Assembly (NCBI GenBank): GCA_001786765.1
Contig: MFTH01000015.1
Span: forward strand, 1,548 to 65,547
DNA length: 64,000 nucleotides
DNA from: Candidatus Nomurabacteria bacterium RIFCSPHIGHO2_01_FULL_37_25
GTDB lineage: Bacteria > Patescibacteriota > Minisyncoccia > Phycocordibacterales > UBA9973
Direction of reading: 5' to 3'
Every line of letters begins with the position of its first letter. The stretch's first letter is position 1. The notes below the pieces were generated by a model. That model was given only the letters and a program-made list of their open reading frames with translations. It did not search any database and was not told the DNA's origin. Of this stretch, positions 28,868 to 36,289 are shown one piece after another. The position numbers were made by a program, and so were the translations under genes.

Positions 28868-29152
28868 ATGAAAAATAATTCTGATCAATACAAAAAGGAA
28901 TTAATTGAAGTAATTTATAAAATTGCCAAAAACAAACAACTTTTGGCGGATTTTATTAGAGATATATTAACGCCTAGAGAATTTGAAAATATTGGAGTAC
29001 GTTGGCAGATAGTGAAGCGTTTGGCAAAAGGGGAGCATCAGACAGCTATTGCGGAAGACCTACATCTTGGAGTAGCGACAGTCACGCGTGGCTCCCGCGA
29101 GATGCGTAAAAAAGAAGGAGGGTTTAGACGCACTCTCAAGATTATCAAATAA
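28868..29152 (+). CDS. trpR: Trp repressor family protein
   Basis: ILTPRE, RWQIV, IAEDLHLGVATVTRGS; adjacent to trpS. Confidence 0.85.
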   Translation: MKNNSDQYKKELIEVIYKIAKNKQLLADFIRDILTPREFENIGVRWQIVKRLAKGEHQTAIAEDLHLGVATVTRGSREMRKKEGGFRRTLKIIK

Positions 29153-34917: not shown

Positions 34918-34937
34918 TACTTTAGTTTAGTAAAGTA
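34918..34937. promoter_or_regulatory. Third copy of the TACTTTA-N6-TAAAGTA operator
   Basis: TACTTTAGTTTAGTAAAGTA, same motif as 36252-36289. Confidence 0.6.
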
Positions 34938-34940
34938 TTT

Positions 34941-35098
34941 TAAACTACGAAACTCTTTTTAAGTATATCTTTTTTTAGGGTACCGATTTTTGAAGCTCTG
35001 CCTACCCGGCAGGTAGGTTAAAAATCCTGCCTTGCCCGTGCCGGGACGACCGAGGGAAGTTCTCAGCTCGACAGCCTCAAAACCCCACAAAAAAACAC
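34941..35098 (-). mobile_element. GGCTGTCGAGCCGAG-family element, inverted, with nested GC-rich inserts
   Basis: Reverse complement of the 6253 core, interrupted by CTGCCTACCCGGCAGGTAGG and GCCTTGCCCGTGCCGGGACGACCGAGG. Confidence 0.7.
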
Positions 35099-35142: not shown

Positions 35143-35751
35143 TTACTTAAAACGGAGGGCGGGACTGCCGGGGAAGTAGCCGTGATCGGCTATCCAACTC
35201 CAGCCTACCACGACCTCGCCACCGCGCTCGTGGAGATACGGTACATGCAGGCCGCCCCGGCGGTCCTGCACGACCGAACCCCAGAGAAAGACCTCCTTGC
35301 CCGCAAACAACTTGCGGAACACGGCGATACCCTTGGCTTGAATGGCAAGCCCATCCTGTAAGTTCAGGCAAGTACCGATAGCATTGTCTTTCTTCAGGCG
35401 GTCGTAGATGGTGTTGTTGCCAACCATCCCCCCACGCTTCTGGTCGTGGTGGAGCCACTGCTCCACGTCGGTCTGGAGGTCGTATTCGACAGGACCCGAG
35501 CACTCCAGCTCGGGATGCTCCAACTTCCTGAACCATGCGGGGTAAGAGGTCGGCTTGACGACCCTGTCCACAAGAATAAGGAAGTCCAGTGGGGGATCGG
35601 GGGGCTTCGGCGTTGCCCCGATCAGAAGCTTTTCGCAATGAAGACAGTATTCTCCTGGAATCACCACGCCCCAGTCTTCCTTAAGATTAATGTCTTTCCC
35701 CACAACCACCGTCGTCATTGCGTGTTTGCATGTTTCTGTTTTTTTTGCCAT
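35143..35751 (-). CDS. GC-rich orphan-family protein: N-terminal CxH...CxxC module plus a domain homologous to 30616-31080
   Basis: SD GGAGGAG; motifs shared with 30616; GC content visibly above the flanks. Confidence 0.75.
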   Translation of the reverse strand: MAKKTETCKHAMTTVVVGKDINLKEDWGVVIPGEYCLHCEKLLIGATPKPPDPPLDFLILVDRVVKPTSYPAWFRKLEHPELECSGPVEYDLQTDVEQWLHHDQKRGGMVGNNTIYDRLKKDNAIGTCLNLQDGLAIQAKGIAVFRKLFAGKEVFLWGSVVQDRRGGLHVPYLHERGGEVVVGWSWIADHGYFPGSPALRFK

Positions 35752-35789
35752 AACTCCTCCATAAAGAACTAAAGAGTTTGCTAAATTGC

Positions 35790-35821
35790 AAAACCCCTTC
35801 CTAAAAACTTAGGAAGGGGTT
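35790..35821 (-). terminator. Terminator hairpin of the putative His attenuator
   Basis: AACCCCTTCCTAA/TTAGGAAGGGGTT 13-bp stem; short U run on the minus strand. Confidence 0.7.
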
Positions 35822-35847
35822 GATTTCGAAAAAATATTTACAAATAA

Positions 35848-36246
35848 TTACGAGCTCAAAAGCAACTCTTTCCTAAGTTTGGAGGAGTTGTGATGATGAC
35901 TTGATAATCTAGCCAAAATTAAACGGTAACCGCCCAAGTTGCCTTTGAGCCATTTTGCAATTCGAGCAATAGTCGCAGAGGAAAGTCCTGTTTTTTCAAT
36001 TATATAATTATATTGCATATTAGAAAAAAGAAGGGAAGCAGCCTCGAGACGATTAGCAAATTCTTGAATTTCGCCTTTTGTCATTAAATCACGCAGAAAG
36101 AGTTTAGCTTCATCAGCATTTTTCAAAACCAAGATAGCCTCAATTAACTGCTTGTTCTCCCGTGTACTCCAGTCTATTTTAGACCCAATTTGCCTAACTA
36201 ATTTGACTGTTTCTATTGATGTTTTATCATTCATTCCTTTACTCAT
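35848..36246 (-). CDS. YerC/YecD (TrpR-family, HisR-like) repressor with an HHH-containing tail
   Basis: FLRDLMT, EI, RLEAA, TGLSSATIARIAKWL, GGYRL. Confidence 0.85.
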   Translation of the reverse strand: MSKGMNDKTSIETVKLVRQIGSKIDWSTRENKQLIEAILVLKNADEAKLFLRDLMTKGEIQEFANRLEAASLLFSNMQYNYIIEKTGLSSATIARIAKWLKGNLGGYRLILARLSSHHHNSSKLRKELLLSS

Positions 36247-36251
36247 TCCGA

Positions 36252-36289
36252 TACTTTAGCAAACTAAAGTACTTTAGTCAAGTAAAGTA
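36252..36289 (-). promoter_or_regulatory. Two overlapping TACTTTA-N6-TAAAGTA operators covering the promoter of the YerC-like gene
   Basis: Boxes at 36252-36271 and 36270-36289; minus strand reads TTGACT-N17-TAAAGT-N6-ATG. Confidence 0.8.

Follow-up and report, generated by a model that had tools for sequence, protein, structure and literature searches.

The attenuators of enterobacterial his and trp operons combine tandem cognate codons with mutually exclusive protector, antiterminator and terminator helices, and stalling of the ribosome leads to read-through (described in the available parts of PMC9413887 and PMC7755916). The HisR/YerC regulon, as set out in the available parts of Ashniev et al. 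2022 (PMC9413887), involves a TrpR-family protein, a 20-bp operator and autoregulation, with hisR heading a his operon in some phyla; histidine-dependent DNA binding is given there as demonstrated for the R. gnavus protein only. Attenuators were sought in that study, according to the same parts, only where HisR and T-boxes are absent, and Patescibacteria are not named in these parts or, by term search, in eight supplements. In Chlamydia, a WWW codon run in the repressor-encoding ORF of YtgCR ties starvation to termination, and the gene order trpR-(putative trpL)-trpBA puts after the repressor gene a separate predicted leader, a trpL that is unvalidated and atypical (available parts of PMC7755916). 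The S. meliloti leader peptide peTrpL functions in trans (PMC7298713, in its available parts). Our literature search, which reached few subscription papers, returned no description of a repressor ORF acting as an attenuator leader or of HisR in Patescibacteria.

A leader peptide is usually a short, disposable product, but in the Patescibacteria locus described here a single reading frame would serve as repressor and leader at once. From comparative sequence analysis we give a rough probability of 0.85 to the reading that the last ~17 codons of its HisR (YerC) gene are the leader of a ribosome-mediated histidine attenuator, likely a classical leader that was fused to the gene. That the 3′ codons of hisR serve as a His-attenuator leader was the central proposal of a preliminary description of this DNA, and it is strongly supported by codon position, covariation, histidine depletion and gene context. 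If true, it would be direct evidence of ribosome-coupled attenuation in Patescibacteria, in which gene regulation is almost unstudied.

The hisR gene, its operators and its orthologs

The window, which is the whole 64,000-nucleotide stretch of DNA analysed, comes from a 726-kb, 98%-complete genome, and the closest named loci homologous to its hisR locus are mostly Candidatus Nomurabacteria or Patescibacteria records. The hisR gene (36246-35848, minus strand) encodes a 132-aa protein of the YerC/TrpR family that is His-free before its tail. It scores 64.1 bits against TIGR02531 (YerC/YecD; cutoff 42.2), also matches PF01371, and has 3FRW, 3G1C and 3KOR, all solved HisR-type structures, as its top PDB matches; together with the HisR-type operators at its own promoter, this bears out the earlier description of the ORF as YerC-like and of the HisR family. 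A second TrpR-like gene in the window (28868-29152), after a tryptophanyl-tRNA-synthetase-like ORF, scores closer to TrpR than to YerC.

Two tandem operators (neither assigned to a strand) precede hisR. The upstream one, TACTTTA-N6-TAAAGTA at 36270..36289, overlaps the predicted -35 element TTGACT (36281-36276, minus), and the second, at 36252..36271, overlaps the predicted -10 element TAAAGT (36258-36253, minus), with the ATG 6 nt further on. Both are exact-core sites that agree with the Firmicutes-type HisR consensus cacTTTAnnnnnnTAAAgtg published in the available parts of PMC9413887. Upstream of hisR, 114 of the 131 ortholog loci have at least two operators and 127 have at least one. The predicted promoter is TTGACT-17-TAAAGT, with TTGACT found 17 nt before the -10 hexamer in 118/131 loci and the first in-frame ATG 6-7 nt past that hexamer in 101/131. 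Because of this spacing the hisR mRNA is predicted to be leaderless, and its whole leader would thus be the repressor ORF.

A lone third operator (34918..34937, no strand) lies past the controlled cargo gene, at the 3′ end of a convergent pterin-dehydratase-like gene. Resembling distal sites are seen at G000 C13:113651 and C7:4127, and in loci L025, L059, L060, L067, L073, L079, L113 and others; these HisR-type operators, lone or tandem, lie at gene 3′ ends, often between convergent genes, and not at obvious promoters. Within the window, hisR and the cargo gene are flanked by a 29-bp inverted repeat that the distal and promoter operators form, and a REP/MITE-like repeat of ~140 nt (34945-35085), present in many copies on most contigs, sits between the distal operator and the cargo-gene terminator. 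Candidate roles of the distal operators are roadblock, antisense promoter, looping or mobility. An operator-flanked inversion or transposon is not favored: the gene order seen in relatives is not what a simple inversion would give.

The ortholog collection began with 167 loci, from which 18 low-scoring or non-scoring TrpR-like paralogs, 9 duplicates and 9 incomplete loci were removed to leave 131. In 121 of these the element could be anchored in frame on its RNA segments 2 and 3; the other 10 comprise 5 without a tail and 5 His-tailed forms with degenerate or truncated RNA parts. The tailed share of this collection is inflated, because the query contained the tail and metagenome hits were limited to the 80 best of 385. 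As an unbiased counterpart, the 70 best-scoring new loci were fetched out of some 198 TIGR02531 matches across 400 genomes in the phylum, and these divide into 27 with His-run tails, 10 classed as carrying a short His leader apart from hisR (one of which, L236, is probably a one-His fused form) and 33 with neither. Eight of the 27 tailed loci, family f42, lack a clear antiterminator; the remaining 19 represent 13 families, and 13 of these 19 loci have a terminator plus an antiterminator duplex whose strength none of 100 shuffles equals. Family f42 (L188, L198, L202, L207, L209, L211, L215 and L226) was excluded from the element count because its antiterminator is non-significant. Its YerC proteins have long His tails with an HRHH motif and His-free bodies, hisI lies downstream once and ribD-like genes in others, and the family may be an independent His-sensing design.

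Pairing segments and the histidine run

The hisR frame ends in a series of RNA parts, all on the minus strand. The His run CAT CAT CAC (35898-35890) is the predicted stall site, judged from the sequence and from codon positions in orthologs. Segment 1 (35881..35890), the protector strand, pairs with segment 2 and in the source genome is also a perfect anti-SD. Segment 2 (35855..35880), the 5′ strand of the antiterminator, encodes K-L-R-K-E-L-L-L; segment 3 and the loop of the terminator are its pairing and covarying partners. Past the stop codon, an A/T-rich spacer (35823..35847) ends in TTTTTTCGAA, which extends the 2:3 helix, and may hold a pause site. The intrinsic terminator 3:4 (35790..35822) has a perfect 13-bp stem (35821-35809 with 35804-35792), a 4-nt loop, a short U tract and an energy of -21.0 kcal/mol, and beyond it a region with an SD (GGAGG; 35752..35782) is complementary to segments 1 and 2 in the source genome only. 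Every sequence in the preliminary description was found where it had been placed on the minus strand, the His run included: AACTCCTCCA (35889-35880) is a perfect 10-bp complement of TGGAGGAGTT (35761-35752) in the downstream SD region, AAACTTAGGAA (35880-35870) is a perfect 11-bp complement of the terminator 5′ arm and loop (35815-35805), AAAGAGTTGCT pairs with AGCAAACTCTTT (35782-35771), with one bulge by that account, and the CAACTC/GAGTTG protector stem is present. The 11-nt and 10-nt complements were matched by 1 and 7 of 5000 tail shuffles, respectively.

These parts are conserved. In 120/121 loci the local fold contains a 1:2 hairpin with 5 bp or more, and the 3:4 terminator hairpin is found in 113/121, 111 of them with at least 4 T; in the spacer, T[CT]GAA precedes segment 3 in 80/121 loci and TTNTTT occurs in 50/121. 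Columns 8-17 of segments 2 and 3 are paired at 0.911, compared with 0.734 (maximum 0.771) in 2000 partner shuffles. Of 82 double changes that lie outside both anchors in 60 tree-independent pairs, 67 are compensatory; slid registers give 1-13. Bases of the terminator loop pair with segment 2 in 422/468 cases, which a mere copy of the terminator 3′ arm would not yield. A hand-picked alignment of 16 sequences was 94% paired, a value reached by 0/500 shuffles. Alignment of yerC 3′ ends, which the preliminary description had put forward as a check, thus recovered both His runs and covariation in 121 loci; the His run, protector, antiterminator and terminator are kept among orthologs, but the pairings on the SD side are not. 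Rfam gave no match at gathering threshold, only generic hairpins below threshold, and RF00514 (His_leader) was absent up to an E value of 10. The element was also considered as a genomic repeat and rejected, as the leader has no second copy in the source genome. In L190, the His codons and antiterminator lie out of frame just past an early hisR stop, in what is either a frameshifted copy or an assembly error.

The placement of the His codons follows the RNA. Across the 121 anchored loci, the linker from the HTH to the His run varies from 19 to 35 codons and the distance to segment 2 hardly changes, so what sets the position of the His codons is the RNA strand and not the protein domain. Of 303 upstream His codons, 276 occupy codons -9..-7 counted from the Lys codon of segment 2, and at least one His is present in 121/121 loci and at least two in 114/121. 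Codons at these positions are CAT (209), CAC (67), CAA (2) and CAG (0), and the 110 His-His comparisons available from independent pairs include 24 synonymous CAT/CAC swaps.

Upstream of the tail, His is nearly absent. The ortholog ORFs contain 1 His in 11,827 residues, and that one precedes the probable start; ~67 or more would be expected from the rates in long ORFs of the source genome (1.6%) and in Clostridia-like HisR (60 in 10,605 residues, or 0.57%; n = 119). In the phylum sample, body His numbers 0 in 2350 residues for the 27 tailed loci, 19 in 878 for the 10 with a separate leader and 46 in 2937 for the 33 others, and among 128 cluster representatives it occurs in 3/46 tailed and 50/82 untailed forms; as the trait is common to kin, such counts overstate independence. 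Tail-less members within the main tailed clade (L010, L194 and L206) do have His.

A tail that belongs to the protein could act there, since His runs bind metals: it could bind metal or mimic the co-repressor internally, while the RNA pairings serve mRNA stability or default antitermination, and 2:3 does form in 96% of ribosome-free transcripts that end at segment 3. We find this very improbable, given that the His position tracks the RNA strand, that body His is purged only in tailed forms, that residues 117-132 are predicted to be unstructured (pLDDT <50 in a weak monomer model), and that the same element exists as a separate short ORF in L174-L176. In L174, the hisR stop is followed, ahead of hisG, by a 23-codon ORF with two His codons, and this separate leader has the same AAAGGGTT strand and CCCCTTCTC terminator; L175 and L176 resemble it in having a separate short leader ORF after hisR. 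The simplest reading of these sequences is that a classical His leader was likely fused onto hisR. A quick tree of 91 columns has starred branches that force at least two changes between tailed and untailed states, with their direction and the number of events not fixed by the tree. Overall, the element is a real, conserved and probably functional His attenuator fused to its repressor.

Ribosome position, coupling and the SD region

In the attenuation mechanism we propose, a promoter beneath the tandem operators would produce a leaderless mRNA from the hisR AUG. Since no further His codon occurs in the ORF, a ribosome starved of His-tRNA would run unhindered to the HHH and stall there, covering segment 1 and ending at the start of segment 2. 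Segment 2, left free, would pair with segment 3 as it emerges, so that no terminator forms and RNA polymerase reads through. With plentiful His, the ribosome would reach the stop and cover segment 2, and the 3:4 terminator would yield a short, repressor-only transcript, letting repressor synthesis continue while the downstream genes are off. The gene would then sense both free histidine, as the putative co-repressor, and charged tRNA-His, through the stall. Some 450 bp would thus supply two histidine inputs, a compactness suited to streamlined genomes.

Folding with ribosome masks agrees in part. A 12-nt mask laid out from the last His codon reaches exactly to segment 2, a mask on the His codons gives 2:3 in 99-100% for transcripts ending at segment 3, and a mask at the stop gives the 3:4 terminator in 92% of 120 loci. 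Family-wide, the 2:3 share in full-length transcripts is 65% with the mask at the first His codon, 38% at the last and 52% ribosome-free, so the protector is weak. The preliminary description had singled out 35740-35910 for folding, and this 171-nt region does fold far below its shuffles (z = -5.4; 0/200 equally low), but the full-length transcript of the source genome retains the terminator at equilibrium even under the stall mask. Switching there would therefore have to be kinetic, that is, co-transcriptional.

The source genome has nusG and nusB, and a search of it for rho found none. The distance from stop codon to terminator stem is a sign of runaway transcription, or loose coupling, and 7 of 16 roughly called terminators are no more than 12 nt from a stop; together with the missing rho, this may mean that transcription and translation are loosely coupled. 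Ribosome-controlled attenuation in B. subtilis works with NusG-dependent pausing at TTNTTT (available parts of PMC9226507). The source-genome spacer contains this motif, which lends weak support to a pause, the DNA being A/T-rich.

A translational layer was a further part of the preliminary description: when not covered by a ribosome, segments 1 and 2 would sequester the downstream gene's SD. Part of this stood: the pairing is real in the source genome, where the minimum-energy fold of the whole region pairs segment 1 with the SD, and among 120 loci no other such duplex is as strong (-18.5 kcal/mol); it is also the sole strong genuine SD duplex. L036, with a related downstream gene, has a matching double change in the segment-2/post-terminator pairing and is one possible covarying partner. 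The family-wide signal is absent, however. Segment-1/SD duplexes average -3.7 kcal/mol in 112 loci and -3.57 with shuffled partners, and a second test gave -4.92 vs -4.90 for segment 1 and -6.28 vs -6.33 for segment 2. These shuffled-partner energies rule out, for the family as a whole, a conserved anti-SD and a conserved segment-2/post-terminator pairing. Furthermore, complementarity to GGAGG comes naturally to a pyrimidine-rich segment 1, and an inverted repeat of this kind could have been perfected by template switching without selection. We consider translational control by these segments doubtful, with the anti-SD a possible local add-on in the source genome. Between the terminator and the SD lies a GTTCTTT(G)A motif (window 35770-35763), present in its strict form in 45/120 loci and rare genome-wide in longer forms, which we take to resemble a boxA antitermination site.

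Downstream genes and comparison with known systems

The controlled gene (35143..35751, minus) encodes 202 aa with a Cys/His N-terminal module and has 57% GC, against about 36% for the genome. Its product has no Pfam or NCBIfam match and no named Atlas family; it has 155 unnamed homologs, and the part beyond the N terminus belongs to a large unnamed Patescibacteria family. Residues 1-~50 (window 35751-35590) match small Cys/His proteins encoded behind the attenuator in L026, L032, L036, L037 and L074, and GC content jumps past them, the module and the jump suggesting that the cargo gene is chimeric.

In 126 loci, the first gene downstream belongs to one of 56 clusters (111 of the 126 genes were scanned against Pfam). 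They include hisS (8), hisI (6) and hisG (4), 18/126 in all, and SLOG (13, four of them in tail-less loci); 108/126 are not recognisable histidine genes, many being small proteins without assignment. L238 has a complete hisS-G-IE-D-C-B-H-AF operon behind the switch, L170 and L235 have tRNA-His there, and the hisD genes found in 3 of 61 hisR genomes all lie about 3 kb downstream of hisR. The five tail-less orthologs do not have this terminator, and three of them (L029, L097 and L134) have an operator just after the hisR stop instead, directly before a SLOG cluster-4 gene. Since an operator replaces the attenuator before it, this family seems to be a true regulon member. In L008 and L095, a hisR-attenuator-hisS-his operon directly follows a large ORF that by eye looks like a serine recombinase, hinting that the operon is mobile.

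The linkage of hisR to histidine genes seen in relatives is absent in the source genome: hisG, hisI, hisD and hisA/F were not found in its 98%-complete assembly, and hisS is located elsewhere, away from hisR. It could be argued from this, and from the scarcity of hisD among hisR genomes and the diversity of first genes, that the attenuator is real in the family but decayed or merely inherited here, the terminator simply ending the hisR transcript and the downstream gene being a passenger. The equilibrium advantage of the terminator would fit, as would a Glu codon where Gly is usual (2/121 loci), with one extra 2:3 mismatch. We nevertheless judge a relic to be improbable, since the source copy retains three His codons, a His-free body, the perfect 11-bp 2:3 core and both operators, and since covariation persists in genomes mostly without hisD, which implies ongoing selection. 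As a working attenuator, the switch of the source genome would report the external histidine supply to a cargo gene of unassigned function. The genes behind the switch also have value as markers, being candidates for the starvation response of host-dependent bacteria: SLOG, radical SAM, methyltransferase and small Cys/His proteins, and the 202-aa cargo protein.

A more complete history, which we favor by a narrow margin over its negation, would center on a leaderless mRNA whose entire 5′ leader encodes a working transcription factor. A classical His leader would have been fused onto a Patescibacteria HisR and the body purged of His so that stalling occurs only at the switch, with fused and unfused states both surviving. 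The dual sensor would have been kept in lineages where histidine synthesis was lost, as a gauge of histidine supplied by the host that gates a rapidly exchanged cargo gene.

Like enterobacterial hisL (RF00514) and trpL, the hisR tail has cognate codons at a fixed distance from the switch, and its antiterminator and terminator are mutually exclusive and covary. Unlike the short leader peptides of hisL and trpL, the leader ORF here is a DNA-binding repressor of 105-135 aa (132 in the source genome) that contains segment 2 entirely, and no Rfam family reaches threshold. Where attenuators of that type have their U tract, only 4 T follow the 13-bp, -21 kcal/mol stem, and a consensus terminator scan made no call. 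The YerC fold and the operator cacTTTA-n6-TAAAgtg at its own promoter are as in the HisR regulon of Ashniev et al. 2022, but His tails, found in Patescibacteria, occur in 0/119 Clostridia-like HisR. In Chlamydia trpR-trpL and S. meliloti peTrpL, as far as the available parts of those papers describe them, leader and repressor are not in one reading frame, as they would be in hisR. Chlamydia YtgCR does share with hisR an amino-acid codon run inside a repressor ORF that is linked to transcription termination; in the available parts of PMC7755916, stalling on YtgCR promotes termination and lowers the amount of a repressor acting in trans, whereas for hisR the prediction is that a stall blocks termination, in cis and by way of covarying helices located where the ORF ends.
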